Shown here in pieces: positions 31,201 through 56,985 of a stretch of 64,000 nt of DNA. Numbering within the stretch: position 1 is the first letter of the stretch; the number at the start of each line of letters is the position of its first letter. Below the pieces are notes generated by a model, which was given only the letters and a program-made list of their open reading frames with translations, did not search any database and was not told the DNA's origin. The stretch lies in the IMG/VR virus record IMGVR_UViG_3300044267_003893, positions 1 through 64,000 of that record; one strand, 5' to 3'. This DNA is from a virus (lineage: Duplodnaviria; Caudoviricetes). The translations under genes and the position numbers were made by a program.

Positions 31201-33416
31201 TTTCTTATCTCTGCTGGTTTAGAATCTGAATTTTCAAATGCGTTTGCTAGATCTACATCATTCATATTTACAAAAGCCTGTAAATGAGCTTTAAAATCAC
31301 CAGCCTTATTATGCCTAAGCATTGTATAGATATGACTAAATATTGCTTGATCTTTATAATCTTTAAAGCTCATTACATCATTATTATATGATGCCAATAA
31401 TGCTAATTGATTATATTGTCTTTGGTTTAGTGCATCTAATTTATTAATATCAAGCATGTCTATTGGATTGTTCCACATCTCATCATACATCTCAATTACA
31501 TTTTTAACATAATCTTTTTTTCTTTGAGCATATTCATCATATGATTTACGGTCTGTAGTATATCTATATAGATTAGGCATATGTTCAAACATCATTGTTT
31601 GAAATGGTTGAACTAAACCACCCATTAAAAAACCTGACATAAAAGTTTCAAAACTAACAGCTTCTGATTGCATACCTGCTCTTAAAGATTCCATCCAACT
31701 AGCATCAGCATTTTTTACTCTATCTTCTAATTCTGCACTATTCATATTCATAGAGTCTGATAATACATCATCAAGTAAATTATCATAGTAATCTCCTACA
31801 CCAGCACTAACCGCTTCTTGTGCTAATTCTTGAAAACCTTCTGCTATATTTGCTTTACTGTATGCTACAGCTGCAACTCCTAATCCTGTTAAACCACCTT
31901 TTAATCCTTCTTTGTAAATTCTTTTTAAACTTGTACCTGCATCTACAAAAGCTTTTTCTCCTGCTTTTGCTACACCTGCCTTTCCAGTTCTCATTATTCT
32001 TCTACCAAGACCTGCCTGACCTTCTTGAAGTAATCTTCCTAAAGGTTTGAATCCTCTTAATGCTGTATCAAGTACAAACTTATTACTTAAAAATATTATA
32101 GGAAAGTTAGCTAATGCTGTTTTCATTCCTGCACTTTTAGATGCATTTTGTAGTATAGCCCATTGTTCATCAGTTGGAGATTTTCCACCATTATCTCTTA
32201 CAATTTTCATGTAATTATGCTCATTAGTCTCTAACTCTCTTAAAGCTCCTTCTAATCTAGATTCAGCCCATGCAACATTAAACATTCTTAAATCTCTATA
32301 AAATCCTCCAAATGTTTGATTTACCTTAGCTAAGTTTGTTAAATTTTTTGCAGTATTTTTTGTAGAATTAACAGTTTGTATTGCTCTTGTTGTTTCAGGA
32401 GCAAGTTGTCTTACCATCCAATCAGCAGCTTTTCCTGGTTGTGTACCTTTTGCATAAGTATAAAAATCTTTAGCTTTATCTACAGCACCCACATGTCTCA
32501 TTAGATCCATTGAATAATTACCAACAGTTTGTCCTGCACCTCGTATCATATCAACACCATCAAAAAAATGTTTAAATCTTCCTGCGTTTCTTGTGGCTGC
32601 CATAGCTGGTAATGCGTATCCTCCCATAAATGCTAATGCAGCTTCTTCTACAAACATACTACCTACTATACCAAATGTATATGCACTATTTAAATAAAGG
32701 TCATTCATAAATCCTGTAACACCACCTCTAGTTGAAGAAGCAATTCTCATAGCATCTCTCATTGCTTCTCCTCCTTCATAATCCATTTTAAAAGGATCTC
32801 CATGAAGAGTATTTCTTAAAGTTCTCCAACCACTAGTAAATGCTGGTTTAAACATACTAACAAAAGCACTACTAGTTCTACTTAAATCATCCCATGCTGT
32901 AGAGTTTTGATTATAGTAAGTTTCATTGTCAACAAAAGGATGGAAACCTAAATCATTAAATGAACTATGATTCAAATACCTATCAGCATTCATTTGCTTC
33001 TTACCAAAAATTATAGGATTTTTCCAAGCACCTGAATGAGGTGTATCATTACCTATATTAGCAATTTGTTGACCAGATCTTCCAAGAAAATCTCTTCTAC
33101 CTTGTTTAGTTGTTAAATCAAATTGACCTGTTTGATCTGCAAAAGGATTTCTATTATTACTTACATTTCCAGGATATGGGGAACTAAATCTAGTTGGATA
33201 AAGAGGTGAAGTTTTATTTATAGAAGCTGCTTGATTATCCATGAACTTTATTGTGTCCATGTTGAGTTTACTATCAGGATTATAAGAAACTGTTGCTTCT
33301 CTTAAAGAATCTACAATATCATTATGATCTTTTGAAGAATATTCAATTGGTGATATATCAACTCCTTTATCTAGAGGTAAGTTATTTCCAGTATTTGTAT
33401 TTGTATTTTCTGCCAT
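16299..33416 (-). CDS. Giant (5705 aa) virion RNA polymerase-containing polyprotein of crAss-like type
   Basis: GVRIPSQDKHS...ELSGADFDIDKLF, with DFDID at 21192-21206 (the DxDxD motif of phi14:2 gp66-type vRNAPs). Also zincin YHEAFH (26562-26576) followed by SEEWLA, P-loop GISGSGKST (21075-21098) and N-terminal hydrophobic helices. Confidence 0.9.
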   Translation of the reverse strand: MAENTNTNTGNNLPLDKGVDISPIEYSSKDHNDIVDSLREATVSYNPDSKLNMDTIKFMDNQAASINKTSPLYPTRFSSPYPGNVSNNRNPFADQTGQFDLTTKQGRRDFLGRSGQQIANIGNDTPHSGAWKNPIIFGKKQMNADRYLNHSSFNDLGFHPFVDNETYYNQNSTAWDDLSRTSSAFVSMFKPAFTSGWRTLRNTLHGDPFKMDYEGGEAMRDAMRIASSTRGGVTGFMNDLYLNSAYTFGIVGSMFVEEAALAFMGGYALPAMAATRNAGRFKHFFDGVDMIRGAGQTVGNYSMDLMRHVGAVDKAKDFYTYAKGTQPGKAADWMVRQLAPETTRAIQTVNSTKNTAKNLTNLAKVNQTFGGFYRDLRMFNVAWAESRLEGALRELETNEHNYMKIVRDNGGKSPTDEQWAILQNASKSAGMKTALANFPIIFLSNKFVLDTALRGFKPLGRLLQEGQAGLGRRIMRTGKAGVAKAGEKAFVDAGTSLKRIYKEGLKGGLTGLGVAAVAYSKANIAEGFQELAQEAVSAGVGDYYDNLLDDVLSDSMNMNSAELEDRVKNADASWMESLRAGMQSEAVSFETFMSGFLMGGLVQPFQTMMFEHMPNLYRYTTDRKSYDEYAQRKKDYVKNVIEMYDEMWNNPIDMLDINKLDALNQRQYNQLALLASYNNDVMSFKDYKDQAIFSHIYTMLRHNKAGDFKAHLQAFVNMNDVDLANAFENSDSKPAEIRKRFEKMIKKIDQVQENYIKFNDKYVNPFDYEQYEEGTNLHAQEQIRWMAFEHAKMMFLFTKDTYERGVERMESILDKISANPAVTTMAANDIAALVGMSTEEGFKSAKGLQKEIDILTDEVAVAPVKTASKELKEQHKNKKEKLKILKEYRDTFLENKNYEKSGTKKQKVKKEDGSIVEEDVVEYSRRLTKAGKERIKKVFIKYLNHIAKTTGGQIADNDSINEAFEMIMDHTALKGRTADYYQASRILDNPTILNDIADRSAVAINKIWKHHKKKNVQRQKLTKFMDQQERGKIISELARKGIYTDVDDAQLFIKTGALPANWFSDENKINEITALDNPETYKTVQTVLRNYAKQKQAEEKVKEEESKDSEVVAEDVDLGDLDAADAIKEEEQYNAIDTEEDSNQTVAKDVNPLTVTSSKLIEFSNSDTSTNRILKKLYNNYTYAVNELGKTDLLDENNKPLDYSSWVIAAKGGAQILKARYHLHARYTFENLTKKRKKSFDEWLTANQAEQFFTNELNKRGLVAEEILVENVLDEIPEVEQVKKGLKSDEKLVETGDQYYNTGIKIIEKTTYNEENNQSRVHYIIRTIPDNKNAFFVYGGLKGAVDNLSEIYTDADPKVAKDKAFNAANWIKNNKPLQNEFFYNVKEGKEGKEKFITGEIVEDNKGNRYTVESKSRTVDSSGRLHVKSIDTGKSQVIDSGQFENEGWKRATDQEVEVKSSQVTKLQIIEPLKLYPYDYKSRPGETDSRDSITKENEQATLRNNINKKLQLLSPDQKDELVITIQKGDEFDDIMAVEPKDRAKLPGINKYPINPQLRKGASKYFVTIGTKDGTQLLVLASPQDVTLVDKKGNKIDPLTITYEQAQQLFRKGDIAHNKNINKQIQRNYAMAFAMEEVFGKLLEQSNTGSAVISLKKLRNEHKIVFDVTSDSPAFREVQREVDASTGKVKTTSVPGQSKIKELADNKFTLGEGTRTIDTSGKNREEEPYYIIWDQQIIIDKGGDPIESNKITNLPVTSKQDRRNFADINAKIADSMTRQGYDTTKSGRYVYFVYSPGLGDNGEYTAIQLKPAQKTFEQITALIHKLRDRMKITEDENVEVVNGERKVKDYSYTSLENDKLRHDLFISGKPGQHINFSINAYGDLEVAYINSKYLAKGQTKPWVVQKNYKYNYVNTILQNETGVQDLIRIINKDINKEVSDKQPHVADNTHAKISIQISGDNISFRESLPTNISAANNSFDFINKKTEAVITTQVRNNVQATLQSTDVAKVNIILNSTQEVERNKTEEESNKPINKGTDTSINSLDNDDYWNKIFNDGYETVDDDILEDIAKELAKNGEIQGDDKVADRKRYILEHPVVANKVEKLIKQVGDNIKDNESSNTSDASTDQTTLDEIDNLKEQSEKIYEEKYNEFLDLYGKEQLENGDNNPDYIADEGLREEQAMEAAENDPQVKALEKRIQDLDAQFKITEEFDGRDIEDINTFRKWLKDNLPSWITMADIDTLADRLQNQGITHGAFLMNLKTIGSRLQFAGQIYTSPETSFRYHEAFHAVFRLLLTNAEIKKYTKLGKEGLLKDLKSENKSIDEAIEDFRKLSPTYLKMSRKEAIDRMSEEWLADKFEEFKTKPKETKVEPEIKSLFQKIIDWIVSIFSQTSVADAEIEMSQLDTELHRLFKDIDSGRFKDVTTPEIGFNKFTKAVAESSGGISTPVYSIIKQDIITREYQVESVTRPGEFITRKRRILIPFTHHETDQLIKMTTALYYDLDKDFKPTKEQPSKDRNALIEKAVDMVIEMRRVSNPYYKQFSLSEKKIIKKKHKALLKDKTAIINGVKDYVAIGSRVENFLNTDDYLVENEDSESSYDANEKRNQQGQFKNVNELLRSMILTSSVEPREGDTFKNRVINPKDDGKKYKVKYSPDYIKVFNGLLKGLSGQKDSFKALKKMWMFAEYNEQTKAAVDVFIQHFFGPDGLKQMDKWVNGQGSVPTFKKADNARLFNLVMKAFYQFRVEYIQALRDVKSGNVSLISANKQTDEEWQLQIWSKEFDALLDEIRRDTFTGSGNNIAVKTNSKIIKKLQEFQNILNSNAPVDKATLQELGLEFSNFFRIRLGINLAPQYIEYSIAIARALDNQYAKDLVELNEGVPPINASVSADQKFSDIDSLIRSLSKGENLYNEADNENSQNTDPDQKKVTNAAQQDEGQAEGVYYRLQKWAIGNAAFDETVGSTVLYDSEGNYIYAHQVPSYHLEIAEEMNSEEGLRRLANRKGFESLKNNNLFNDERFKQLSLQGKLRIIRQLGLKDTSMKIKDGKLVEDKTLDVNTLPGRSFGNLTFNEFTASLFNMYGLHFNELTGKVKTLRYYDPATDTSNNEMAYNPLLIRVLSESNISDFQNVPMIEAIKKTLGPEGQTQFTDEYIDKWLKRIERKYNEIQYNYNRLANGERNEDDLEEGYNVIRDKKGFDITSIETVEETMSDVTTGRAYKFNYEVDGLLSIQKIIERQVSVDPEQVISIIGKDDIKFLTEGINNKKQKIFLKDKSIKGLDARNNATIIEIDGIEYYVRYEGNIQAQNSDLSEVLDGLGEGVQYSNQYDEDSGFVHKFDYNGAKYARRKTIANWFNTKDKTKKRYRIIPLEELKAEEDRQKRERDEDPLFDNQLKKHLEKNARNTKSPKTFSEAMDSYTDSKGRSGRDFIMEALMSQFNRFEDLMIHTNAIKGFDEKLLQGKLAYGTDKGVAAQALSSFGKMKLKTDDQSHNMKQIFFSNWLNTADLNEFYLGNQSMSLKDAVDAGKRAKMQNAGGASAASLVGAKEYGIEKVQKFGYITFKDPITKQTHNLEGGVSNGDRTDGQVYYTVNAFKHFWFGLGQLTRSQYELIRKIQNNEPVTAEEFFGQVGKNTLGYKQNKEYINAKKFVYGDGTVYLKMSMTILSPELDTWQDGPRKGQPKMNKMALYNMRMMAEEQERKTGKPMILVPETASKMTKRNVLNPEQASRMFNGTLDSETIDNAYDELDANFLRLQQVTPSNKDIIIEPIQIKNIITSEQSDATEVIFMGQTMTVGDIRGLYEYSIANRLKLNYIDRSNLIFDLPHAMSALQKSIEEGKATPDLQSFLDYALASLEASQTSGQLVEFFRKRKNGQNKYELNNPLSIQKYTELLLSFFQKGVIGQKQPGKSVVLMSDFGIKIYKKVEAIDENGTPIAWTVLREKQIEQKSQSELDKMNILEPEDNEQGIITGLKVGEYYIDRLRHDVTDWKRDEKGELIFDRKGNPISEGTVHTEFVLPPHTAEEMNLNPNEPIPDVIARQFGVRIPSQDKHSAVNLKLVDHLPVFMGSTGAFAYELLELSGADFDIDKLFIHNKAFYKKETEVQTKDISEAQGLLLPIGISGSGKSTYIDQLAADNSNVVVVSPDAIRRELTGDVSDQTRNKEVFKIAHERAAAAIRDNKLVVFDATNTQQYGAFGRLSLIQSIEKLADKSFRTYYKTFEVDPNTAMQRVQSAINNGVDRAKTPGFVIQRQFDQFEKDKNNLEGLVSIDEGIFYKTKTELKEYGKAEKLEDQFDEYMNYSEKEMMNTGSNLYYARIKFLSRDRDRQRRDGKDILISAENVNKEFNSYLLDSGNIIPGENPKELKQKWAEEKSKQTGLRYEYEFESDEFEPIYKERLTKREQLIGALNMLSLPTNKDDYKKFREENKRTIKLNNGQEFTLYKEPYSAAYSNNILDFKYLLLGNDSMSKPKGGRRQGIKNEPAVDTIFSDIWDSWENKLPKVYQRNRVDGYDPNNMLGQHKIYRDSKEGARNIGAVVPLNTIISWLKKNKVVLRNSNSSGESILLPRLNGHTYNKYGINYFIDPITGEEIKGKNATRIGDAMSQLISIMVDNQKNPYSGKLGLNKHAAAIMANGIGLGIDVETIALLLNHPTIVDAYERGNNKIKPEDPSPMGILLKYYNSFKDATGKDAWKQKLFEEAQELEVTDDMLIEHQDTLFEMEKEVADLTNKDRERLTDTMLRQKLAVIKQMLALNNIKTHNSLLIGVSQLEKGKMRDVNAIKDSQDTLNELGMYLSKKDYLETENPFPYNFLQNLKDPNTTVGASIEVFEHLSENVLPLLVVTSTAPFQKLENLLKDGLSHKLSRDVKQVTHTKISRDILSYLTIKAYMHQLSRVPKQKKGNFASQTLKALDNSLIYDQMGDDSSVRINQVVAKLEKYLKENKITNHFVKDFIKNQKATAKQNKTGANIIGTRNFQRLTPPQISAIVTSFLELQIDPNTREAADHMLHYLMVTHGLQNRYGAFNQAIVPILLSSYLEDASKVKDLFGDFSNIKTQEQEDARFKNIFGMTFKELAKDLARWFESSPDTHLLTKITKTIKASELKNPDVQLDLPVKTVSWDKVANKRAVIQANPQTLYVIPGILEEDGNRIGPFGEIKDYPNVIIIPVKKTLKQNYDSQDYDAAFLAIGIKIQEIVEKSDNYDSIAFPNKGIGTDLDPFFQINRNKNDQTTKLLTDLNLKLLGLFGYKNAKKEMKPVEGSTTKITIGDDGIENIEKGKQTLIFKDDSKLKKDKTDIKKGKTKLVKFGKKYYEVKYLGSKTLEEAGGQQKVLEGLGVKRIPEVNKAYTNLFTDENHRMHMFEIVGESETGPKKEMKDTTATVVSEGRVTSPLAFRSIGEKDEENTIEISIYYGTGRRTKYIKGKKRKVSMDKYKKNKKIKENAKRLRAFGFKTKKIEDDLEVVLFPPVIRVYEKDKGYTYYRYVGGETPFGTTEITDDIYDVDGGQNALYGSTASYERFVPYGSKYQWKGGFIFNVNIVDGKVETQPTQNELQENVKKNQRRTSDGIVIPDISQYTEKNTAIGDTDVSNVNVDNDGADFLLNKETGETTRNNSKNVEEIKKGMIGVVTPREGGKKATADMFSKAENKDATIKKNQISDTTIDYKELEAWWYGAKKNDIIRVAQGMNMSGITLKDFKNEFEKVKEMVNLPNYKIKDFMERIKDCM

Positions 33417-44331: not shown

Positions 44332-47300
44332 TTATCTTATTGATAGATTTATTTTAGTATTAACTAATTTAAGTATCATTTTTCTTGTATGAAGAAAAGC
44401 TGCTGGATCTATAGGATTTCCTAATTCATCAAATATTTCAGGAACATTATTAATATTTGTATAAATTTGTTCTCCCTCATATATACATGTACCATCATCA
44501 ACTGTTGCTTCTGGATAATAATTTAATGCTGTTGAGTCCATGCAACCACAAATAGATCCTGGAGGACATACGTTTTGAGCATATATACAAGTACAATTAT
44601 CAGCAGTAGCACCACCAAAATAATTTAATGCACTAGGATCTGTACATCCTGGAACACAACCTTCTTCAAGAATAGGTCCTTCTCCACATGGAAAACATGG
44701 TTCAGGTATTTCAGGAATTTGAATAGCAGGATTTACAAAATATTGAACTCTCTTTTTTAGAATTAAATTATTAGTATAATGTCTGAATTTTTTACGTTCT
44801 AATTGTGGTTTATCATAATTCATATAAGAAGCATTTAAGTCTCTTATATAACCATTTAATTGAGTTATAAAAATTGATTCAGATATATTTCTATCATTTG
44901 TGATATCCCAAAATTGATCAAATCTATATTTTTGTTCTACTTTACTATATAGTATTTGTATATCTTCAGTTCCTATTATTGGATATTGTAATGTGTCATT
45001 TATATTTGCTGTTTGTTGATTTAATACTAATAAGCCTGAAACCTGTTCAGAATTATATATAATAGCTTCATCAAAATTATACATTAAATCATGCCATCTA
45101 TCATCACATCCAAAATTTAATACACAACCATCTGCATCAAATTTTGGTTTATATTGATATGATTCTAATTGATACTCAATACTTCTTACTGTATTAACAG
45201 ACTGACCCATACTTTCAACAAGTTCTATTTCCCAAGGATATTGTACTGAATAATAATTATTAAATAAATCACAACGTACATTATGTTTCCATATACCTCC
45301 TCCTTGATATGTAGGTTCTACAAATGCTTGTTTATCAAATTGACACATTGCAGGATTTTCATTAACATATGTCCATTCTTCTCCTGTACCTGGATGTACT
45401 CCATAAAATTCTGAATACCCCCATAAATAAGGATCATCACAATCACCATATTCAGTTAACCATACATAAGGATCTATATCATCAGGTAGATTAGGAACTG
45501 TTAAATCATAATCTTCTAATACAGGACATGAACATTCTATCTTTATACATTTTGGTGGAAAGAAAGGATTTGTAGCTACTAGCTCACCATTTATAAGTTG
45601 ATAATTAGCAAAAGTATCACCAACTTGAGTGTATCCTTCAGGACATTCACATTCACAAGGATTAAACATGTTTTGTATCAATTGATTGAGTATAGGTCCA
45701 TAATCATCACAAGGTCCGTTTGCATATTGATACAGATAAGGTTGAGATTGAGTTGGTCCAAATCCATATGCATACTCTCCCTGATCACTACAAGATGAGT
45801 TAAGTAATCCGGCTTGAGCATAGTCTGGAAGATCTTCAAAACATGCAGCTACTGGATTAGCAAATACAGCAAATACTTCAGTTCCTGAATAACAAATATC
45901 AGCAGCATCACCACCAAATCCACCCTGACTTAATTGATCACTTAATAAAAATAAAATATTTCTAAAATTAGAACAAGAATATCTATCATTATAAGTTCCA
46001 TCACCACATTGAACAGTCGTACTACCTATTGGCAATGCAGATTCTTCAGTATTCATCAGGTTCTCAAATCCTGCATCTAATCCTTCTTGTATATCTGTTC
46101 CACCACCAAAAGGATTTTGAGCATTTGGACATATACCCCAATTTGTAAACATTGGTGTACTTTCAGATTCACCAGTATTAGACCAAAGAGTATATCCTGC
46201 TTGTATATATCCTGCATTAGCATAAGGTTGAAGTAATTCCATAAGACCACAAGCAAAACCCCATTCTGCTCCATATACACCCCCAGAATATGTTGATCCA
46301 GAAGCATCCATACTAAAAACTATATTCATTGGATCTACAGTTATTTCCGGGTCACAACAATCAACAACGTCTATATCTATTTGAGCAGGTTGAAGTTCTT
46401 GTATTTTATATTCACATTCACCTGTATCTGGATTATATAAAAATCCATCAACACAAGTAGGATATGGAAGAGGTCTTGTATTTGTTGTCATAAAATGGTT
46501 ATGACTTTGTATATTAAGTTCTGGATGCCAATCATGAAAAGATACCCATCCTTTTATTTTTGGATCATAACTTGCTGTCCATGATACATCTTTAAAGTAA
46601 TCACTATCTTGTATATCAATTTCTGTTATTACATCATTATACACAGGATCAACACACTCTCTATCTTCACAAACTTTAGCAGCACAATGAACTTGTATAG
46701 TCTCATCAAAACAATCAGTATCTGTAGCTGGTATATCTGTTCCATATAATACTAACTCATATTCTTCTCCGAGATGACTACAATCACAATATTCATCAAA
46801 AGGCTCCGGTAATGGAGGCAACTCATCACAGACAAGACATCCATCAATCAAAGCACTTTGTAATGTAGGTTTAATTTGTTGTTTTAGTTGTATAGGATTA
46901 TATTTCCAATTTTTAGAATAATCATTAACATATGCTACATTTGGAAGACAATCAGGATCACTTGCCTGATCTTCACCACACCCATAATAAGATAATATTC
47001 CTGACGCTTGAAAAGATGGTACCATATATAAAGGTCCACTTCCTATAGTTATAGGTTCAGTAGTTGGATCTGCAAGTTGGAAGAAAGGTAATTCAAAGTT
47101 ATATACAGCACCCGTTTCCATTTCAGTTAAAGGTTCAGCAGTTGTACCTTGCCATGTAACACCACAATCAAATCCTGAAGGAGATCCTCTTTTACAATTA
47201 TTTAAGGGGCCTGGTCCTGCAGCATCATAATCATAACCTGTATCATCAAGTGAATCAGGATTGTATAACCAAGGGCTAGTAAAATTAAAAGACCCTCCAG

Positions 47301-50300
47301 TACCATCTCCTAAAAATTGAAACTCTTCATCAGCTTCAAATGCTAGATCATTATGTTCATGTTTTGCTCCTATAACATGTCCTAGTTCATGTAAAAGTAA
47401 TTGTGTGCTACCATAATTACCAACATTATCATATTGATCTTGAGTTTCAATATCAAGATCCATATTAAAAGCACCTTCATTAAGAAAATCATTGCTTAGA
47501 GAAAGCGCAGCAGAATAATGAGGTCTATGATAACCTAGATCGGTTATACTATTACAACCTACACTTCCTGTAAGCCCTACACCACTATTACTAAAATTAT
47601 TAACAAAACCTGGTATACAACCGTCTGGAAATTGTTCTTCACAAGTTAAAGCTGAGTCTGTATTACATTCACAAAATCCATCCCAATTAGATAAATATTC
47701 ATATATCTCATAAGGTGAACCATCTGGCATTTCTGTGCATTGTCTTGGTCTTGTAATCCAAGTACCAACTACATCTTTTGGTATTGCAATTAAATCAGGT
47801 TCATTACTATGTAGTGTTCTAGATAGTAAATTTAAAGTATTCATACTTCCCATTAAACCTCCCCATGTAGGAGCATAAGCAAGACAATATGAATTAATAC
47901 AATCATCACCAGTATACTGAGCTCCATGAATATATGGACATTGATCTGGATCTTCATATATTGCTATACCTGCTAATGTAATTTGTGCACCAACATTTTG
48001 GAACATTATTTCACTCATTATTGCAATCTGTGCTTCTACATATGCGGTCCAAGCATCAACATCGTTTTGAGGATAAAAAGCTGGATTATAATTTGTTAAC
48101 CAGGTATTACACGTGTTACCAAAAGGTGCAGCAGCAAAAGTAAACCAAGGTATATCAACAAAATGTCTTATACAAACTTCTTCTCCATCTACAAACATTA
48201 CAGATGGATTTTGATCTAACATTCTAGATGATATATTTGATTCACCTCTAGCTGATCTTGCTGCTCTTTCTAGTTTAAAGTTTACTTCTGATTCATTTGC
48301 TTTCCAAATATTTCTTAACTCATTTCTTCTGTGTATAATTTCTTCAGGGGTTCCATCATCTGTTCCACAACCTAAATTATTAATTTCAACTACACCTTCT
48401 CCTTCTACTCTTCCTATTCTATCTGAAAATTTAAATAAACCATATTTTGAATTTTGAAGTTGACCAATATCATATTGCTCATCATTTATCATTATAAACC
48501 CTGTTATTTTAGAATTATCTTTATTACCTGAAATTATTATTTTTCCTTTATATTTATAAAGTTCATTAGTTAATATAGATTGTTCTTCTCCTCTTATATT
48601 ATAAATTCTATTAGAAGTTGGTTTACTATCTTGCATAATAATACCATCCTTAGTACTTCTTCTAACTTTAAAACTATTTAAAATAGGAGATGCTTCAATT
48701 AAATTTACAGTAAGTACTTCATCATTTTTAAATGGTATTTCTAAATGAAATTTCTTAGGTTTTTTATCCCAAATAGTATCAAAAAATATTTTAGATACTC
48801 TAAATGATATACTATTATCTTTATCTCTAGTTCGCTCTGCTTTTTGTTTTTCTATTGGATTAGTAAAAGTTTTTCTAATAAAGCTTTTTCCAAAAGAAAC
48901 CATTTCACCAGTATCTGGACTATCTTCATCATCATCTTCACCTTCAGTATCTTCAACTGGTAAAACTTGATATGCTCCAGTTACTACTGTACAGCATTTT
49001 TGTAATTCTTCATCCCATATCCAACCTCCTGGACAAGGTCTACAACAACTTTGAAGTTCTTCATCCCATTCATATTTTGGATGAGGACAGCTTCTTACTT
49101 GCTCTACTCCAAGACATTCTGTTTCATTTACAAAAAACATTTGATTTTCTGGATCAAATTGTAAACATTGATTTGTATTACAAGGTTCATAATCCTTTTT
49201 ACTAAAGTATACAATGTCATAGTTAGGATCATATACGGCTTGGCAACCAATACCTATTACAGGATTATCAGCAAATTTAGTTCCTTCTAATTCTGGAAAT
49301 GCTTTTAATAATCTAGATGGTAAATATGTATTAAACCATTGTTTCATTCCTGCATCAGCAATATTAGTTAATGACTGTGAGTAATTAAATATTTTACCTT
49401 GAGCTTGAGACATGTAATATACTCCTGCAGGTGTATTTATTACACTCAATGAATTTTCACATGATCCATATTCATGTGGTAAATCAGCTGTACTTATTTG
49501 TTGCATTGGATCATTAAATAAACCTCCATCACCAATAGTAAGCTTTGTGTTAAAGTCTGTACTTAAAGTATCAACACCTTGAAATAATTGTGGAGCTATA
49601 TGAGGAAATAAAATTAATGCTCCTGATTTAGATATAGGTTTAACTGTAGTAGGAACGTTTTTAAAGTCTTGATAATTATTTGGTAAGAATACTCTCCAAA
49701 AATCTTTTTTAGATTCTTTATTAGCTTGATTTGAATATATTATTCTTTTAGTATAGTAATCATAACATGTATCTGCTACTATAGGATCATAGTCTCTTGG
49801 TTGTATTAATCCGTAAGTTACCATTTGACTTACCATATTAGATTTACTTAAAGAAAAATCATATTTATAATAATTACCTTTCTCTATTATATCTGCATGA
49901 AATAATGATTGAATATCTGTATAGTCAGCCCAATCATAATGTTTTTGATCTGTACTTTCTCCTTGATGTCTTAATCCTACATTAAGTTCTGATTCAACAA
50001 AGAAATCATTTATACCACTACAATGAGTATACATATAAGCAGTTCTTAAAATAAACATACTATTAGTTGAAGTATTTTCTTGATTTTCAACATCTTCTAA
50101 TACAGGACCATTAGCAAGATAAACACCAGATCCAAGATCTGATGTATCACCAATAGCAAATCCAGGTGGTCTATCTAAATTACGCATTGCTGATGGAACA
50201 GCATTACCATCAGTCCAATCAAAAGAAAAGTTTGTAATAGGTGCAAGTATATTATGAATATCATATTTTGTAGTATCCATCCAATATCTTGCAAAACCAA

Positions 50301-53300
50301 CATTCATATACTGTCTATAATCAAAAGCAAATTTATCAGGTTGCCCATTTAAAAATTCCCAAAAGAAAGGCATTATAACCTTTTCATTATATCTATTTAT
50401 ATAACAATCACCACCAAATAAAATACCTGATTTAAATACTTCTCCTGGTACAAATGTATCATCATCTAAATTTTCAGTAAATGGAACTAAAGTATCTGGT
50501 GTAACTTCAACATCTTCAACATACACACAAGTACAATCATCATTAGTGGCAGTTGAATTATAGTTAACTGCTAATGGATCTGTACAACCTGCAATACAGT
50601 TTCCTAATATCCAATCATCTCCTTGACAAGGAGAACATGGTTCAGGTTCTTCTGTAAATCCTGGTCTAATAAATTTTTGAGCACAAGGTACAGGTAGTTG
50701 TTTAATACCATCTAATTGACCATATTGATTATCCATTGCAAACTTTAATCCTACATAATGAGCACCAATATATGATATATAACTTTGAGTAGGAGTAGTC
50801 CAATTCTCTAAAGTACCTATTGTAAATCTAGATGAATCAAAGTTATTACCATCTTGCCATATTGGAGTTTGAATATTTCCAAAAGTTCCTGCAGTTTGAA
50901 TAGTAACAGTAGCAGGTCTATGTAAATTATTAATTTTAATATTCTCAGTAGTATTAGTGGATCCAAAGTCTTGTAAGGTGTTACCTACATATCTTCCTTT
51001 GGTTATATTATTTCTATATACAGATCCTTCTTGAAGTTCAAATGTATCTGAATACAGACCATATGAATTATATTTATAGGCATGATTTCTTAATCCTGCT
51101 ACATTATATATAAAGTCAATTATTATATCTCCACCTACAGCAGCATAATGGAATGTCATAAATACACCACTTATAATCTGTCCTAAGTTAGGTAGTGATT
51201 TTACATCAGTACCTTCAAACTTAATTTTTCTATTACCTATTGCTTCACCAAAAGCAGCTTGTTGTATAAGGTTAAGAGGTTGAAGTGTACCGTCTAATAT
51301 TGTACCTGTACCTGAGTAATATGCAGCTTCAGCTATACCTGGTGTAGCAAGAGAACCCTGTGTAAATCCAGTTTCTGCAGCTTCTATAAGTAAATTATTT
51401 ACAATACCTGGATTAGGACCAAATAAGGGAGGTGGAGCTCCTATTCCTGTTGCTACTTCAAGTTCAGTAGCTCTTTTACCACGCATTTTACTAATTCCAT
51501 AACCTACACCGACCACTGCTGCAATGATAGCTGCAAAGTCTCGTAATAGTGTAACTTTAGGATGTCCTTCGGAAGGTCTAAAAGATCCTGTTTGAATACC
51601 CCTTGTCCATCCGTAAGTCTTAACTTCAGCAGGATTTAAATAAGGTCTTTGGAAAGATGTCTCAGGTGAATGAAAAGTATAAAAATTATTACAATTCAAA
51701 GGATTAGTACTATTACCACAATATCCTGTACCTGGTTGTCCCATAGGTTGTGGGTTTGTATTATCCCAAAATTGTGGTGCAGCTGTTGTTAAAAAAACAT
51801 CATTGTTAGTACTATTATATGGATAGTTAGCATGAAGACCTACAGATCCTTGAGCAATTCCATCTCCAAAAGTATCTACTAGAGGATATTGTTTCATGTT
51901 TCTAAATAATCCTTTTGATAGTATAGATTTGTTACCTTCTCTTGATCCAACTAAAATTTCATAACCTACAACATTTGATATTGGTTTACCAGAATTATCT
52001 ATAGGCCAAGCAATATTATCAAATTCAACTCCTAAAATACGTATTCTTTGATTATTATTATTAGATCTATCAACAGTCCATTCTGTAGTATCTGTTTGTT
52101 CTTCTGGAAATTTATGATGTCTAATAGGTTTACCACATAAATCTCCCCATCTTCCATGAGGATCTTCTGAAGGATATAATTCTGTTGATTCCCAATATCC
52201 CATTTGACCTTTAGAAAGTATAACACCTCCATCATCTGTTGTTGTTACTCCATCAAATTCATCTACAGATGCTGTATTAGAAACTTGCCATGGTTCTGTT
52301 TCATTTGATCTAAGTATATTATTACCATCTGTAAGTGTAGAATCTTTTTCATCATCAGTTGCTTCACGTCCAGGAATATGATATGAACTAGATTTTTCAC
52401 CAGTTTGATAAATAAATCTAATAAAGAAAGCATATTGTTCATCTCTCATAAATGTTGGCTTATTACCACCATTCTTATAATACTCAGCAGGATATTCTAC
52501 AGAAACCCATTTAGCAGTTATGTTATTTGCTAAAGGTTGATAATTAAAATCAAAATTTGTTGTTGGACTTATTCTAAGAAGATAATCATTAAGAGGTATC
52601 ATCTTATCAGATTTTTCATATGCAGGATTTTGTAAAGTTAAATTCTGCAATGGAACTTGTTGTGATGTAGCTTTATTTGTAGGGATATAATCAATACTAA
52701 TAGTTGTTTGTTTTGTACTGTAAAATCCCACTTGAACAGCTGTTGGTTGTTGCTGTTGATTTGATAATATAACTAATTTATAAAAATCAAAATTTTCATC
52801 TAAGTTAGAAATTTTTATATTTAATGAACAGGCTGTACCATCATTATCAAATAAAGGTTGAATATTAGATACACCAATATAATCACCTATTTGTTGTTCA
52901 TTTATTGTATATGCAACATAGGCTTGATAAGATCCATTAGGTAATTGTCCAGGACTATCTCCTTTCTCAATATCAATACATGGAGTTTTCATTAATGGTG
53001 CTAAACGTATAAGATCACAATTGAGTCTTTTTGGTTCTATGTCTTCATAAACATAACAATCAGAACCATCAATTCCAGGACCTGAAACTTGTTCTTGAAA
53101 CCAAGGAACATATTCATTTTCAGGTATACTATTAGCAAAACCTAAATTAAGAGTTCTAGAAGGATTTAAACCATCATCCCAATATATTTGCCAAGTACAA
53201 TCATAGTTTTCTTTAGCAGCTCCTGTTATAAGATTAGAATGTCTAAAGTTTAAACATTGATCATTTACTAATGTAGTATATTCACATTTACTATCATCAA

Positions 53301-53601
53301 ATAATCCTATCTCACTTCCCCAATTATCATTTCCAGAAAATATTATCCAACTATCTCCATATAAATAAATGGCACCTATAATAACAAATCCTGTTTGAAC
53401 ACATATAAGATTAGCAGGTTCATTACCTATAGTACCAGCATCACCTTTTGCAGAATTATTAATACAATTTCTACAGTGTACCCAGTTTTCTTTTCCCACA
53501 AAACTTTTATGAGAATCTTTTATCATACCTTTTACAAATACATCAGTATCTACATTAGAGGTATCATTAGGTTTAAAGTTTTTACTTTTATTCTCTGCCA
53601 T
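44332..53601 (-). CDS. Muzzle/tail-stabilisation-like protein (3089 aa) with inserted metzincin protease, vWA and Cys-rich repeats
   Basis: Core motifs FVKGMIKD...NCINN...IGNE, RDEQYAFFIRF, SWTASYDPKIKGWVSFHDW and IWKHN...FNNYY. Inserted HELGHVIGAKH (47359-47391) and VFSMDASGS (46294-46308). It follows the two ring-like genes. Confidence 0.8.
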   Translation of the reverse strand: MAENKSKNFKPNDTSNVDTDVFVKGMIKDSHKSFVGKENWVHCRNCINNSAKGDAGTIGNEPANLICVQTGFVIIGAIYLYGDSWIIFSGNDNWGSEIGLFDDSKCEYTTLVNDQCLNFRHSNLITGAAKENYDCTWQIYWDDGLNPSRTLNLGFANSIPENEYVPWFQEQVSGPGIDGSDCYVYEDIEPKRLNCDLIRLAPLMKTPCIDIEKGDSPGQLPNGSYQAYVAYTINEQQIGDYIGVSNIQPLFDNDGTACSLNIKISNLDENFDFYKLVILSNQQQQPTAVQVGFYSTKQTTISIDYIPTNKATSQQVPLQNLTLQNPAYEKSDKMIPLNDYLLRISPTTNFDFNYQPLANNITAKWVSVEYPAEYYKNGGNKPTFMRDEQYAFFIRFIYQTGEKSSSYHIPGREATDDEKDSTLTDGNNILRSNETEPWQVSNTASVDEFDGVTTTDDGGVILSKGQMGYWESTELYPSEDPHGRWGDLCGKPIRHHKFPEEQTDTTEWTVDRSNNNNQRIRILGVEFDNIAWPIDNSGKPISNVVGYEILVGSREGNKSILSKGLFRNMKQYPLVDTFGDGIAQGSVGLHANYPYNSTNNDVFLTTAAPQFWDNTNPQPMGQPGTGYCGNSTNPLNCNNFYTFHSPETSFQRPYLNPAEVKTYGWTRGIQTGSFRPSEGHPKVTLLRDFAAIIAAVVGVGYGISKMRGKRATELEVATGIGAPPPLFGPNPGIVNNLLIEAAETGFTQGSLATPGIAEAAYYSGTGTILDGTLQPLNLIQQAAFGEAIGNRKIKFEGTDVKSLPNLGQIISGVFMTFHYAAVGGDIIIDFIYNVAGLRNHAYKYNSYGLYSDTFELQEGSVYRNNITKGRYVGNTLQDFGSTNTTENIKINNLHRPATVTIQTAGTFGNIQTPIWQDGNNFDSSRFTIGTLENWTTPTQSYISYIGAHYVGLKFAMDNQYGQLDGIKQLPVPCAQKFIRPGFTEEPEPCSPCQGDDWILGNCIAGCTDPLAVNYNSTATNDDCTCVYVEDVEVTPDTLVPFTENLDDDTFVPGEVFKSGILFGGDCYINRYNEKVIMPFFWEFLNGQPDKFAFDYRQYMNVGFARYWMDTTKYDIHNILAPITNFSFDWTDGNAVPSAMRNLDRPPGFAIGDTSDLGSGVYLANGPVLEDVENQENTSTNSMFILRTAYMYTHCSGINDFFVESELNVGLRHQGESTDQKHYDWADYTDIQSLFHADIIEKGNYYKYDFSLSKSNMVSQMVTYGLIQPRDYDPIVADTCYDYYTKRIIYSNQANKESKKDFWRVFLPNNYQDFKNVPTTVKPISKSGALILFPHIAPQLFQGVDTLSTDFNTKLTIGDGGLFNDPMQQISTADLPHEYGSCENSLSVINTPAGVYYMSQAQGKIFNYSQSLTNIADAGMKQWFNTYLPSRLLKAFPELEGTKFADNPVIGIGCQAVYDPNYDIVYFSKKDYEPCNTNQCLQFDPENQMFFVNETECLGVEQVRSCPHPKYEWDEELQSCCRPCPGGWIWDEELQKCCTVVTGAYQVLPVEDTEGEDDDEDSPDTGEMVSFGKSFIRKTFTNPIEKQKAERTRDKDNSISFRVSKIFFDTIWDKKPKKFHLEIPFKNDEVLTVNLIEASPILNSFKVRRSTKDGIIMQDSKPTSNRIYNIRGEEQSILTNELYKYKGKIIISGNKDNSKITGFIMINDEQYDIGQLQNSKYGLFKFSDRIGRVEGEGVVEINNLGCGTDDGTPEEIIHRRNELRNIWKANESEVNFKLERAARSARGESNISSRMLDQNPSVMFVDGEEVCIRHFVDIPWFTFAAAPFGNTCNTWLTNYNPAFYPQNDVDAWTAYVEAQIAIMSEIMFQNVGAQITLAGIAIYEDPDQCPYIHGAQYTGDDCINSYCLAYAPTWGGLMGSMNTLNLLSRTLHSNEPDLIAIPKDVVGTWITRPRQCTEMPDGSPYEIYEYLSNWDGFCECNTDSALTCEEQFPDGCIPGFVNNFSNSGVGLTGSVGCNSITDLGYHRPHYSAALSLSNDFLNEGAFNMDLDIETQDQYDNVGNYGSTQLLLHELGHVIGAKHEHNDLAFEADEEFQFLGDGTGGSFNFTSPWLYNPDSLDDTGYDYDAAGPGPLNNCKRGSPSGFDCGVTWQGTTAEPLTEMETGAVYNFELPFFQLADPTTEPITIGSGPLYMVPSFQASGILSYYGCGEDQASDPDCLPNVAYVNDYSKNWKYNPIQLKQQIKPTLQSALIDGCLVCDELPPLPEPFDEYCDCSHLGEEYELVLYGTDIPATDTDCFDETIQVHCAAKVCEDRECVDPVYNDVITEIDIQDSDYFKDVSWTASYDPKIKGWVSFHDWHPELNIQSHNHFMTTNTRPLPYPTCVDGFLYNPDTGECEYKIQELQPAQIDIDVVDCCDPEITVDPMNIVFSMDASGSTYSGGVYGAEWGFACGLMELLQPYANAGYIQAGYTLWSNTGESESTPMFTNWGICPNAQNPFGGGTDIQEGLDAGFENLMNTEESALPIGSTTVQCGDGTYNDRYSCSNFRNILFLLSDQLSQGGFGGDAADICYSGTEVFAVFANPVAACFEDLPDYAQAGLLNSSCSDQGEYAYGFGPTQSQPYLYQYANGPCDDYGPILNQLIQNMFNPCECECPEGYTQVGDTFANYQLINGELVATNPFFPPKCIKIECSCPVLEDYDLTVPNLPDDIDPYVWLTEYGDCDDPYLWGYSEFYGVHPGTGEEWTYVNENPAMCQFDKQAFVEPTYQGGGIWKHNVRCDLFNNYYSVQYPWEIELVESMGQSVNTVRSIEYQLESYQYKPKFDADGCVLNFGCDDRWHDLMYNFDEAIIYNSEQVSGLLVLNQQTANINDTLQYPIIGTEDIQILYSKVEQKYRFDQFWDITNDRNISESIFITQLNGYIRDLNASYMNYDKPQLERKKFRHYTNNLILKKRVQYFVNPAIQIPEIPEPCFPCGEGPILEEGCVPGCTDPSALNYFGGATADNCTCIYAQNVCPPGSICGCMDSTALNYYPEATVDDGTCIYEGEQIYTNINNVPEIFDELGNPIDPAAFLHTRKMILKLVNTKINLSIR

Positions 53602-53606
53602 TTTAT

Positions 53607-54521
53607 TTATCTTACAGGAGGATAACTTCTAAACATATCATAATAATTATGATATTGTGCTTTTCTATTTACACTCCATATTTTTTGCATGTCTTTAAAG
53701 TCTGGAGTATTTATAAATCCTAATGCATTATTACGTGCTGCTCTTAATTTACCTTGCATATATTTTAATTTTTGAGAAACATCTTCTCCATCAAATAACA
53801 TGTTTTCTAATATTCTTTCTTTCAATGCATATTCATAGTATTCATTACAATAAGGATGATCTAATACTAATAATTCTCCTTCTTCATTCTCCATTGCTCC
53901 TTGATAATTCATGTATACTTTTCCTGTATCAAAATTAGTTAATAAAAATCCATCTTTTATTTCTGCAATATCAACAGCTTCAGCATTAATATTAGGACAA
54001 CCGTTTTCAATAACTGAAGTACTATTTTTTATTCTTAATGGATAAAATCTTGTAGAAGTTCTATATTGTTCAGCACCCATATATTGAACTACCATATATT
54101 GATTAGTATATACAGTTTCTCCATTTTCTTCTTTAGGACAAGTTTTAACTACACAAACATCTTTACATGTAGGATCATCACAAGGACCAACGTCTCCTCC
54201 ATCAGGAGATGGTACATACTCAGTTTGAGTTGTGTCAACATGTGTACCAGAAGGAAATGTATTTACAGTTTTAAATTCATCACATACAAAAGCATAATTT
54301 AGATATTTAAAATCAGAGGGTAATTTAACTTTACTATGTTCAACTTCTAATACATCTTCTTTAGTTCTATGTATTTTTAATCCTAAATCATAATTAACTC
54401 TGATTGCAACTTTAATTAATTGCTGAGGTTCAACCATCCCTTCTAAAGCTTGACTAGAAAAGTCAATACTAACATCTTCCATTAATTGATTAAATGTTCT
54501 ATATTTATGTGAAATTGCCAT
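53607..54521 (-). CDS. Tail ring/tube adaptor-like protein (crAss-like ring protein)
   Basis: 304 aa. YRTFNQLMEDV...LIKVA...GFLLTNFDTGKVYMNYQG...LVLDH...EYALKERIL. Position upstream of the muzzle gene. Confidence 0.65.
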   Translation of the reverse strand: MAISHKYRTFNQLMEDVSIDFSSQALEGMVEPQQLIKVAIRVNYDLGLKIHRTKEDVLEVEHSKVKLPSDFKYLNYAFVCDEFKTVNTFPSGTHVDTTQTEYVPSPDGGDVGPCDDPTCKDVCVVKTCPKEENGETVYTNQYMVVQYMGAEQYRTSTRFYPLRIKNSTSVIENGCPNINAEAVDIAEIKDGFLLTNFDTGKVYMNYQGAMENEEGELLVLDHPYCNEYYEYALKERILENMLFDGEDVSQKLKYMQGKLRAARNNALGFINTPDFKDMQKIWSVNRKAQYHNYYDMFRSYPPVR

Positions 54522-55192
54522 TATCTATTTAAATTTTGTTTATTATCTGAATCTTCTGAAGGAACTTTTAATGTATTAAATGTTTCTTGCATTACTTGTT
54601 GTTCTATTTCTGCAAATAAGAATTCAGGTATAAACATTCTTTGTTTATATCTTGGTATACAGTTATCTGAAGGATCACAATTAAAATTTGAAATATCATT
54701 TTCCCAAACCCCTTCTATTTTTACAGCATCCCAATCTATATTAGGAAAATATAAATAATCATTTAAAAACCAAAAGTATTTAGTTGTGTTATATTTAAAT
54801 GTAGTTGACTTAGTCATTGATGCATAAGTTCCTGGTGCAGTAGCTTGACACTCTGTACAACCATCAATTGATGATACAGTTCTAATTAATGGACCCCAAT
54901 ATCCTTCTTGAAATGCTGGAAGTTTTAATTTTGTACGTTTAATAGTTATATCACTTTTTATTCCAATATAATCTGATTCTATTTTATCTATATCAACTAA
55001 TTCTACATAATCTAAACTTTGCCAAATACCATTAAACTTCATTAGCTTATTAGCATTATCTTGTCTTCTCATGTATAATTGAGCATATTTTTTAATCAGA
55101 CTATAAAGATATCTATCTGTAACAAATGCATCTTCAGATTCAGCTTTTATTTGACCTCTGACCCGAGATACTATATCTCCTATTGTTTGCAT
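54521..55192 (-). CDS. Tail ring/head-tail adaptor-like protein
   Basis: 223 aa. MQTIGDIVSRVRGQIK...TDRYLYSLI...KYFWFLNDYLYFPN...FIPEFLFAEIEQQV. Coupled (TAATG) to the next ring gene. Confidence 0.65.
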   Translation of the reverse strand: MQTIGDIVSRVRGQIKAESEDAFVTDRYLYSLIKKYAQLYMRRQDNANKLMKFNGIWQSLDYVELVDIDKIESDYIGIKSDITIKRTKLKLPAFQEGYWGPLIRTVSSIDGCTECQATAPGTYASMTKSTTFKYNTTKYFWFLNDYLYFPNIDWDAVKIEGVWENDISNFNCDPSDNCIPRYKQRMFIPEFLFAEIEQQVMQETFNTLKVPSEDSDNKQNLNR

Positions 55193-55776: not shown

Positions 55777-56985
55777 TTAGTCTGGTGAATAAGTTAGTTC
55801 ACATATATTACCTTTATTATAATCATGTAATTCTATTACACCTGATCTTTTAGATCCTACAAACTTATTATGATAATGCCAATAATCTGTTCTAGAAAGA
55901 CTTGGAAGTATCTTTAGCATAAAACCTGTACGTTCATTTGTAGTAATATATTCTACTTTCTTTTTATGATGCAAATGACCTGTAAATAAGGTTCTATTTG
56001 CAGTTATACCCCATTGTTGTGCAAACTCTGTAGCATAAAGTAAAAGAGAGTTTTTAGTATTTACATCACCATGTTCAAAAGCAAAGAAATTATCACCCCA
56101 TGTATATACTTTTCTTTCAAGATATGTTACATCCCAAAGTATATTAGGATCATCTATAGCTCTAGATAAAGCATGAGTTAAATGAAATGAAGATAATCTA
56201 TCATGGTTACCAGGAATATATACAACCTGAAGATCATCACAATATTGTTTTATAAAATTTATACTCCAATATATTGCATCAAATGCTTGCATATATGCAT
56301 CTGTAGCAGTAGAACAATTATCTAATGGTGTACCACTAGTAGTAGTACCTGCCCATGTATCCATATTCATTAGATCTCCTCCTACTACATAAAATATTTT
56401 TTTAAGATTATGGCCAGAATGTGCTCTTTCTACAAGATCCATAATAGTTTCTTCAAAATCTTTATCTATAGTTTCGTTACCTTGTTTACCAAAATGAATA
56501 TCTTGTAAAGATAAAATAGCACATACATCTTTTTTACTTTGACTTTTAATTCTTTTAACTGGAGAGAATTTTTTAGGTTTCCAGTTTTCAAGTAATTGTT
56601 CTATATGAGCAGTATCATCATTTTTAAGTTTTGTAATTAAAGCTGATATACGCCAATGATCTGACATTTGTTTATTCCAATATTGAGATAACTTCCATTG
56701 TGTTGTGTCAATATTTAATATTTGTATAATTTCTTCAGGAGATTTAGGTTCTGTATGTGATATTCCAGTAATTTTTCCTTGACCATTTTCCATGTCATAT
56801 GATGATGTACAATCATCTGTGACATATCCCATCTCTTTTTCTTCTTTTCTTTTTTCTCTTTCTTCTGCATAAATTTCTTTTTTTATTTTATCAAATTCTT
56901 CTTCTGTTATTCCTAATCTCTCTGCACAATATTCTGAATTCTTTTTCCATTTTAAAGCATTTTTTACTTTTTCTTTTAAATTCAT
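55777..56985 (-). CDS. Calcineurin-like metallophosphoesterase with an N-terminal HTH-like region
   Basis: QDIHFGK, GGDLMN, PGNHD, FEHGD and FTGHLHH motifs. N-terminal NSEYCAERLGITEEEF. Confidence 0.85.
   Translation of the reverse strand: MNLKEKVKNALKWKKNSEYCAERLGITEEEFDKIKKEIYAEEREKRKEEKEMGYVTDDCTSSYDMENGQGKITGISHTEPKSPEEIIQILNIDTTQWKLSQYWNKQMSDHWRISALITKLKNDDTAHIEQLLENWKPKKFSPVKRIKSQSKKDVCAILSLQDIHFGKQGNETIDKDFEETIMDLVERAHSGHNLKKIFYVVGGDLMNMDTWAGTTTSGTPLDNCSTATDAYMQAFDAIYWSINFIKQYCDDLQVVYIPGNHDRLSSFHLTHALSRAIDDPNILWDVTYLERKVYTWGDNFFAFEHGDVNTKNSLLLYATEFAQQWGITANRTLFTGHLHHKKKVEYITTNERTGFMLKILPSLSRTDYWHYHNKFVGSKRSGVIELHDYNKGNICELTYSPD

Follow-up and report, generated by a model that had tools for sequence, protein, structure and literature searches.

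Enzymes that are built into tail proteins and carried by the virion are established, and the known ones mostly cut sugars (capsule, lipopolysaccharide, exopolysaccharide) or peptidoglycan. The muzzle protein of crAss001, gp44, is encoded after ring protein 1 (gp43) and before the cargo proteins, and variation in muzzle length was assigned to the IG2 and crass domains (PMC10172136). We analyzed the first 64,000 nucleotides (hereafter the window) of the 86,070-bp IMG/VR contig IMGVR_UViG_3300044267_003893 (30% G+C) and describe here its muzzle gene. A loop in the propeller part of the encoded protein was found, with strong support, to carry a complete zymogen-type metalloprotease module on Cys-rich stalks. 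The zinc ligands and the catalytic Glu of this module are intact, and the virion may cut host surface proteins as well as bind them.

The window gene and crAss001 gp44 (PDB 7QOK/7QOL) are alike in their position after ring protein 1 and in the homology of their N-termini, but gp44 has 1371 amino acids (aa) and the window protein 3089, more than twice as many. The large inserts of the window protein lie in the C-terminal propeller region and consist of a protease zymogen and a vWA-like domain; the description of gp44 mentions neither. Tailspike and tail-fibre depolymerases and virion peptidoglycan hydrolases likewise hold an enzyme covalently within a tail protein and carry it to the cell surface. 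These enzymes cut polysaccharide or peptidoglycan and need no zymogen form, whereas the window module combines an endopeptidase fold with a retained, putatively inhibitory prodomain. A preliminary description of this DNA knew of no described muzzle with such a domain. This stands for the literature, as full-text searches turned up neither a muzzle protein with a protease domain nor a phage tail with a metzincin, but the module is not a one-off, since at least 13 other public marine muzzles carry it. What appears to be new, to the extent that the predicted fold can tell, is a zymogen of protein-cutting type whose place in the tail protein, itself described only recently, is also new; it is recurrent in public metagenomes and undescribed.

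The identification of the open reading frame (ORF) as a crAss-type tail muzzle protein of an uncultured marine crAss-like podovirus is strongly supported. The motifs quoted in the preliminary description were all found in place on the minus strand within this single ORF. The gene order Ring_2, Ring_1, muzzle is also present in the related loci L007 and L010 and in crAss001 (gp43 then gp44). The Pfam family crAss_MUZ (PF25731, gathering cut-off 27 bits) matched the N-terminal 450 aa, scanned alone, with 39.9 bits (E 2e-10) and was not among the families listed when the whole 3089-aa protein was scanned; in the relatives P0023 and P0012 it scored 86.3 and 57.6 bits. An hhalign comparison of a profile of 15 family members (A3) with residues 8-397 of gp44 gave 95% probability (E 3.6e-8); the middle of the protein (residues about 400-1050) had no hhalign match, and thus none to the 'crass fold' domain that gp44 has inserted in IG2. 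The hmmsearch with the same profile missed gp44 and phmmer of the whole protein against PDB sequences returned nothing relevant, so that the link between gp44 and the window gene was obtained only via hhalign, Pfam and fold search. The muzzle core shares about 24% identity with gp042 of Cellulophaga phage phi4:1, which mass spectrometry has shown to be a virion protein, and is similarly related to the annotated 'Muzzle protein' of phage csAssE-Sib; the nearest cultured relatives by muzzle core are phages of Cellulophaga and Flavobacterium.

The C-terminal propeller was examined in the relative P0065 (1698 aa, 54% identical in the core, with the same Ring_2/Ring_1 synteny) and not in the window protein itself. 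AlphaFold2 (AF2) was run on its C-terminal 759 residues and gave a poor model, with a mean predicted local distance difference test score (pLDDT) of 44.8, below the quality needed to assign the insertion site to a particular blade or to read the direction of the loop. The top Foldseek matches of this model were the crAss001 muzzle chains 7qok_A (E 7e-6) and 7qol_P (E 3e-5), and VIA aligned model residues 376-758 with gp44 residues 1117-1371 at Z 10.9. For model segment 365-540, VIA returned podovirus tail-complex chains or nozzles and generic propellers. The phage GP4 portal-tail chain 8jov_A matched the model at Z 10.4. These matches indicate that both blocks flanking the insert belong to the C-terminal propeller part of the muzzle. 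Together with the synteny, the crAss_MUZ score and the hhalign result, they uphold the earlier proposal that the flanks are those of a tail muzzle protein.

The conserved part of the muzzle retrieved 1247 relatives at E <= 0.001, mostly from marine metagenomes (e.g. Tara). Three core blocks of the window protein, A (ending at residue 1472), B (2336-2400) and C (starting at 2755), were mapped by BLASTP on the best 120 of these 1247. The A-B spacer of the window protein has 863 aa, close to the insert of about 850 aa noted earlier between the core segments. Of the 116 relatives compared, 36 have a spacer of 31-60 aa, 48 one of 201-600 and 20 one above 600, the longest being 1797. It is thus strongly supported that the 863-aa stretch is an insertion into a loop that is about 35 residues long in the simplest relatives. 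Block B, immediately downstream, is 100% identical in P0002, the 86% identical relative. Removal of the insert as an intein or intron was ruled out, because the frame is uninterrupted, the domains have homologues, and no His-Asn/Cys splice junction was seen at the borders. In a metagenome contig of 4x coverage (L006:2-7067) a frame change, placed precisely where the prodomain starts, divides the muzzle into two called genes (1508 and 844 aa); either the sequence is in error there or the muzzle is split in nature.

Length also varies at a second site, the B-C spacer, which is absent in some relatives and reaches 778 residues in others. In the window it holds the second insert, in which Pfam found no match. 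The homologous B-C region of P0008 and P0009 matched, at 5.6e-7, a vWA hidden Markov model (HMM) built from Pfam-VWA-positive relatives, and the profile A5 gave only sub-threshold matches in the PDB, all five of them to vWA domains (E 0.2-0.8). A vWA HMM from the Pfam-positive domain of P0023 matched 81 relatives, 73 at B-C and 42 at A-B. In this marine clade, accessory domains (vWA and protease) are thus accommodated in two muzzle loops.

The 755-residue protease module was modelled by AF2 with an alignment of 21 homologous sequences, which include the window and its 86% identical relative. The pLDDT was 74-89 in the prodomain (module positions 11-140) and about 65-87 in the helices and strands of the catalytic core. 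Foldseek returned four significant matches, all to ADAM17 chains with prodomain and metalloproteinase (E 1e-5 to 7e-5), of which 9q7y_B, 8snl_A and 9o58_A come from zymogen/sheddase complexes and 9o54_A from a prodomain-metalloproteinase construct; next in rank were the ADAM17 prodomain chain 8snm_A, profragilysin and adamalysins. VIA aligned 338 residues of the prodomain and catalytic domain (model 9-682) with the ADAM17 prodomain-metalloproteinase at Z 18.9. Against entire P-I snake-venom metalloproteinases (about 200 residues) or the ADAM17/TACE catalytic domain, it aligned 187-196 residues at Z 14-14.7 with a root-mean-square deviation of 3.1-3.5. All 50 VIA matches listed were M12B proteins, ADAM22 among them. 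The Foldseek and VIA matches indicate that the insert has the architecture of an adamalysin zymogen, and the presence of an adamalysin catalytic-domain fold is supported by a model that is partly of low confidence.

The catalytic domain of the window lineage is too divergent for single-sequence searches. No match to the insert was obtained by tblastn against 50,697 phage records, a word-indexed search found only P0002, and an exhaustive phmmer search of 1.84 billion representatives gave only four matches. P0003 and P0004 are muzzle fragments with the same module, whereas P0005 (940 aa) stands alone and clearly matches Reprolysin_3/4/5 in Pfam. The prodomain segment, which is the best-conserved part of the module, retrieved 17 proteins by phmmer, and the zinc motif lay 320-490 residues past the prodomain in every protein whose chain was long enough (in P0010 it reads HELGHNIRSPH, with Arg in place of the motif Gly). 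Precomputed Reprolysin-family domains were present on 11 relatives and the sister module of P0012 passed the Reprolysin_5 cut-off with 34.4 bits; split Pfam scans of the window module gave two weak Reprolysin_5 matches, below the cut-off and in the same order as in the model. A profile of five modules, the window included, retrieved cellular proteins at E 7e-13 to 4e-6, whose precomputed Pfam matches include Reprolysin families and, in most, also Por_Secre_tail, the sorting domain of the type IX secretion system (T9SS). A search of IMG/VR with the module profile gave no confirmed locus, the back-translated patterns being too weak for this to be evidence of absence.

Thus the module is homologous to the T9SS-secreted reprolysin-like peptidases of Bacteroidota (Reprolysin_3/4/5 plus Por_Secre_tail), which share with the module family the prodomain Cys, the zinc motif and the Met-turn pattern; these peptidases, however, are free secreted proteins with sorting domains, whereas the muzzle modules and P0005 form a separate clade. 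The preliminary description had read the insert as a reprolysin-like metalloprotease with a prodomain, and the AF2 model, the VIA scores against ADAM17 and the P-I enzymes and the retrieval of Reprolysin proteins by the profile agree with it. The window domain is a divergent reprolysin-like metzincin, descended from the M12B group and predicted to work like it. We do not call it a certified M12B member because it lacks both the Asp after the third His and the Met-turn Met and its Pfam score is below the gathering score.

Six residues (C1745, H2071, E2072, G2074, H2075 and H2081) were invariant in all 21 module sequences. A chance HExxH was ruled out by these invariant columns together with the fold match. 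The Cys of LGCGT, put forward earlier as a candidate Cys switch, is C1745; it is the only Cys of the prodomain, while the linkers and the catalytic domain hold 32. The Met-turn column is Met ([TS][ILV]M[SGN]) in the 19 other sequences, and Leu2203, already pointed out in GILSY, occurs only in the window and its 86% identical relative. At family-conserved positions these two proteins are identical in all but one case. The entry linker in full is common only to this pair. Their prodomain-catalytic linker is far longer than in the sister modules, and residues 1761-1810 are identical in both at 50 of 50 positions (dN = 0). This linker with its RSAR may be a processing or regulatory segment.

The module was found in 14 of 121 marine muzzles (the window and its best 120 relatives) and at two different sites. 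At A-B it is present in eight complete proteins (the window, P0002, P0004, P0008, P0009, P0015, P0034 and P0055), while the truncated P0036 has the prodomain there; at B-C it is present in five (P0010, P0012, P0017, P0078 and P0107). The split fragment P0003, outside the 120, also has it at A-B. All 14 module-bearing muzzles have the prodomain, and every complete one has a zinc motif. In a maximum-likelihood tree the muzzle modules and P0005 formed one clade (100/99) apart from the cellular proteins. Within this clade the tree was a polytomy and did not decide between single and repeated capture at A-B and B-C, and the branch leading to the window and P0002 had 2.16 changes per site. The stand-alone P0005 (L005:5131-7950) consists of a prodomain, a reprolysin domain and leucine-rich repeats and adjoins SprB/CHU_C-type genes; it nests within the clade of muzzle modules, with P0078 and P0107 (90/95). 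This placement points to a transfer between phage and cell, in one direction or the other. Because the cultured relatives infect Cellulophaga and Flavobacterium and the homologues are linked to T9SS, a marine Bacteroidota host is suggested.

Selection was estimated pairwise between the window gene (44332-53601) and that of the 86% identical relative (L007:2170-11427). The ratio of nonsynonymous to synonymous substitution (dN/dS) was 0.32 in the muzzle core, 0.59 in the prodomain, 0.76 in the structured blocks of the catalytic domain (29 changes only) and 1.04 in its loops; the structured blocks were 89% identical and the loops 75%. This pattern fits a surface diversifying under host pressure and also relaxed constraint. 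Synonymous divergence (dS) was 0.145-0.165 in the insert compared with 0.058 in the core (2.5x), and 0.10-0.17 over the vWA-like and protease inserts together. The uneven dS suggests that the insert regions have a separate recombination history and were exchanged between related phages. Nucleotides 46001-48000, which cover the catalytic domain, have 34.7% G+C compared with 26-31% in most 2-kb segments of the window, as would be the case if the domain were of foreign origin or differed in amino-acid composition.

The best overall explanation, to which we give about an even chance, is that the tail-tip muzzle bears a latent zinc protease that cuts host surface-coat proteins. Since gp44 of crAss001 is a hexamer, six copies of the module would ring the tail tip beside six vWA-like domains from the second insertion site. 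From the size of the module and its Cys-rich linkers we infer that the modules face outward on disulfide-stabilised stalks; the crAss001 tail is disulfide-bonded as well (PMC10172136). During assembly, in the reducing cytoplasm, the prodomain Cys would cap the zinc and keep the enzyme silent, so that host and phage proteins are spared. Once outside the cell, oxidation, displacement on contact or a cut within the conserved RSAR-bearing linker could release the switch. The active enzyme would then cut the host surface coat, most likely T9SS-exported adhesins or other surface proteins of marine Bacteroidota, which would give the muzzle access to the outer membrane or release the virion from decoy receptors. 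A protease beside a vWA-like domain would make a bind-and-cut arrangement, and the module would be the protein-cutting counterpart of tailspike depolymerases. The whole of this scheme (a latent zymogen endoprotease on the tip of a marine crAss-like virion, activated outside via the Cys switch and cutting host surface proteins in concert with vWA) is more tentative, and we put it somewhat short of an even chance.

For an active enzyme speaks the retention of the zinc ligands, the catalytic Glu, the Gly and the prodomain Cys on the branch of 2.16 changes per site. A rough estimate for four specified residues to be kept at the average rate is e^(-2.16x4), about 2e-4, which ignores rate variation. 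Several observations weigh on the other side. The dN/dS values of the catalytic domain indicate that its constraint is weak or that selection is diversifying, and speak somewhat against a strongly selected enzyme. The module shares with the ADAM17/TACE zymogen and the P-I snake-venom metalloproteinases the prodomain-catalytic architecture, the fold, HExxHxxGxxH and a conserved prodomain Cys where a Cys switch would be expected, but it is only about 10-16% identical to them, and 122 residues separate its third His from the Met-turn position. In M12B adamalysins Asp directly follows the third zinc His (HExxHxxGxxHD), whereas the window has Glu (HEHND), and sister modules and cellular relatives mostly have Thr; four residues after this His, a family-conserved Cys is replaced by Asp. 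The Met-turn Met is replaced by Leu2203, in a segment with pLDDT below 50; in other metzincins the change of this Met to Leu lowers stability more than it abolishes activity. In total, 15 of 46 family-conserved positions differ in the window module. Reprolysin_5 scored only 24.4 bits on the window (cut-off 27), the mean pLDDT of the module model was only 54, and the C1745 segment and the two large loop expansions fell below 50, for which reason the model shows no Cys-zinc contact. The outward orientation of the loop on the virion is itself deduced indirectly. Finally, since the module lies within a structural protein of the virion, its prodomain is tethered at both ends and cannot leave or diffuse away, and no furin system is available.

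Much of this would also suit a module that only binds, an adamalysin fold serving as adhesin or receptor-binding surface, its proteolysis lost or irrelevant, with variable loops and vWA setting the host range. ADAM22, found among the fold matches, is a catalytically dead protein of this fold. The dN/dS near 1 in the loops and 0.76 in the core, the very long branch of the window lineage, the loss of the Met-turn Met and other family-conserved residues, and the vWA adhesion domains that usually occupy both sites in relatives all point the same way. We nevertheless consider this reading unlikely, if not negligible. The three zinc His, the catalytic Glu and the prodomain Cys were kept on that long branch and in every complete module, and a pure adhesin needs no inhibitory prodomain, yet the prodomain, with its lower dN/dS and its 17 recognizable homologues, is the part conserved best.

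The protease could instead be directed at the phage itself, cutting the muzzle gate, linkers or cargo on receptor contact to open the channel, or maturing the muzzle. The crAss001 muzzle gates the exit of cargo and DNA and cannot open without rearranging (PMC10172136), genes for giant cargo proteins follow closely downstream in the window, and the prodomain-catalytic linker with RSAR is 100% conserved in comparison with the 86% identical relative. About 88% of related muzzles, including those with loops of 31-60 aa, work without the module, so the module is not part of the core opening mechanism, and its occurrence at either of two sites suits an accessory surface role better than a precise internal one; we regard a self-directed protease as improbable. 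Digestion of marine gels, particle matrix or mucus, by which virions would move through particles with their Bacteroidota hosts, is in keeping with relatives from marine metagenomes such as Tara and with nearest cellular homologues that resemble secreted proteases in their Reprolysin and T9SS sorting-domain matches. The present data fit this role and targets on the cell surface alike, but six copies fixed at a tail tip are poorly placed for bulk digestion, and matrix clearing seems very improbable. If the preferred reading of a latent protease acting on the host coat is true, proteins join the list of barriers that phages remove enzymatically, with a 'protein depolymerase' class of virion enzyme, and it must then be asked by what means a virus particle activates a zymogen. 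The two propeller hot spots for vWA and protease could help to predict what determines host range in marine crAss-like phages of Bacteroidota, which are abundant but mostly uncultured, and they form a natural scaffold for enzyme display on phage tails.

Table 1. Positions in the window of the muzzle gene, its neighbours and the parts of its protein
Feature	Positions	Strand	Basis or remark
Tail ring protein 2 gene, upstream of muzzle	54521..55192	-	Pfam CrAss_Ring_2, 63.5 bits
Tail ring protein 1 gene, upstream of muzzle	53607..54521	-	Pfam CrAss_Ring_1, 40.3 bits
Muzzle gene, 3089 aa (P0001)	44332..53601	-	Single ORF; immediately follows the CrAss_Ring_1 gene
N-terminal muzzle core, residues 19-285 (ring-joining domain, first propeller blades, IG1-like part)	52747..53547	-	Pfam crAss_MUZ
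Core block A, residues 1381-1472, upstream flank of the insertion	49186..49461	-	BLASTP in all relatives; propeller-blade fold in P0065
YDPNYDIVYFSKKDY (block A), residues 1457-1471	49189..49233	-	Read from the ORF
Entry linker, residues 1473-1580, nine Cys then acidic run VEDTEGEDDDED (48922-48957)	48862..49185	-	Sequence reading
Prodomain, residues 1581-1750, beta-rich	48352..48861	-	AF2, ADAM17 prodomain alignment, phmmer
C1745 (Cys of LGCGT), Cys-switch candidate	48367..48369	-	Sole Cys of the 170-residue prodomain
Prodomain-catalytic linker, residues 1751-1799, predicted helical, RAAR/RSAR (RSAR 48247-48258)	48205..48351	-	Low pLDDT
Adamalysin-fold catalytic domain (predicted), residues 1800-2262, two large lineage-specific loop expansions	46816..48204	-	VIA; Reprolysin_5 below cut-off
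Zinc motif HELGHVIGAKH, residues 2071-2081 (H2071, E2072, H2075, G2078, H2081)	47359..47391	-	Alignment
Met-turn equivalent GILSY, residues 2201-2205, Leu2203	46987..47001	-	Alignment
Exit linker, residues 2263-2335, six Cys	46597..46815	-	Common to P0003, P0004, P0008, P0009, P0017
Core block B, residues 2336-2400, downstream flank, contains SWTASYDPKIKGWVSFHDW	46402..46596	-	BLASTP-mapped in 116 relatives
SWTASYDPKIKGWVSFHDW, residues 2340-2358	46528..46584	-	Read from the ORF
Second insert, residues 2401-2755, vWA-like domain with DASGS (DxSxS)	45337..46401	-	Homology to the P0008/P0009 B-C region
Gene after muzzle, 644 aa	42387..44321	-	C-terminal Phage_lysozyme2 domain, 63.8 bits

A 23-residue Cys motif, GC[TM]D..A.NY...A..D..C.Y, occurs in three copies in the muzzle gene (50521-50589, 44581-44649 and 44479-44547, minus strand), one before the propeller part and two near the C-terminus of the protein. 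It is also present in the exit linker of P0004 and at the C-terminus of the stand-alone protease P0005.

The minus strand carries nearly all large genes of the window, including ORFs of 5705 and 1989 codons, and no tRNA genes were found in the window. The 644-aa protein encoded after the muzzle is probably an ejected peptidoglycan hydrolase; in the related locus L010 this slot is occupied by a 2057-aa protein with LysM and YkuD domains. The two giant ORFs (5705 codons, 16299-33416, and 1989 codons, 10339-16308, both on the minus strand) lie downstream of the tail and cargo genes, in the position where crAss001 has its virion RNA polymerase subunits. A gene for a 402-aa SbcD-like DNA repair exonuclease (55777-56985, minus strand; PHROG 704, E 1.6e-46) is located among the structural genes, with a collagen-like tail fibre gene on one side and those of the ring proteins on the other.

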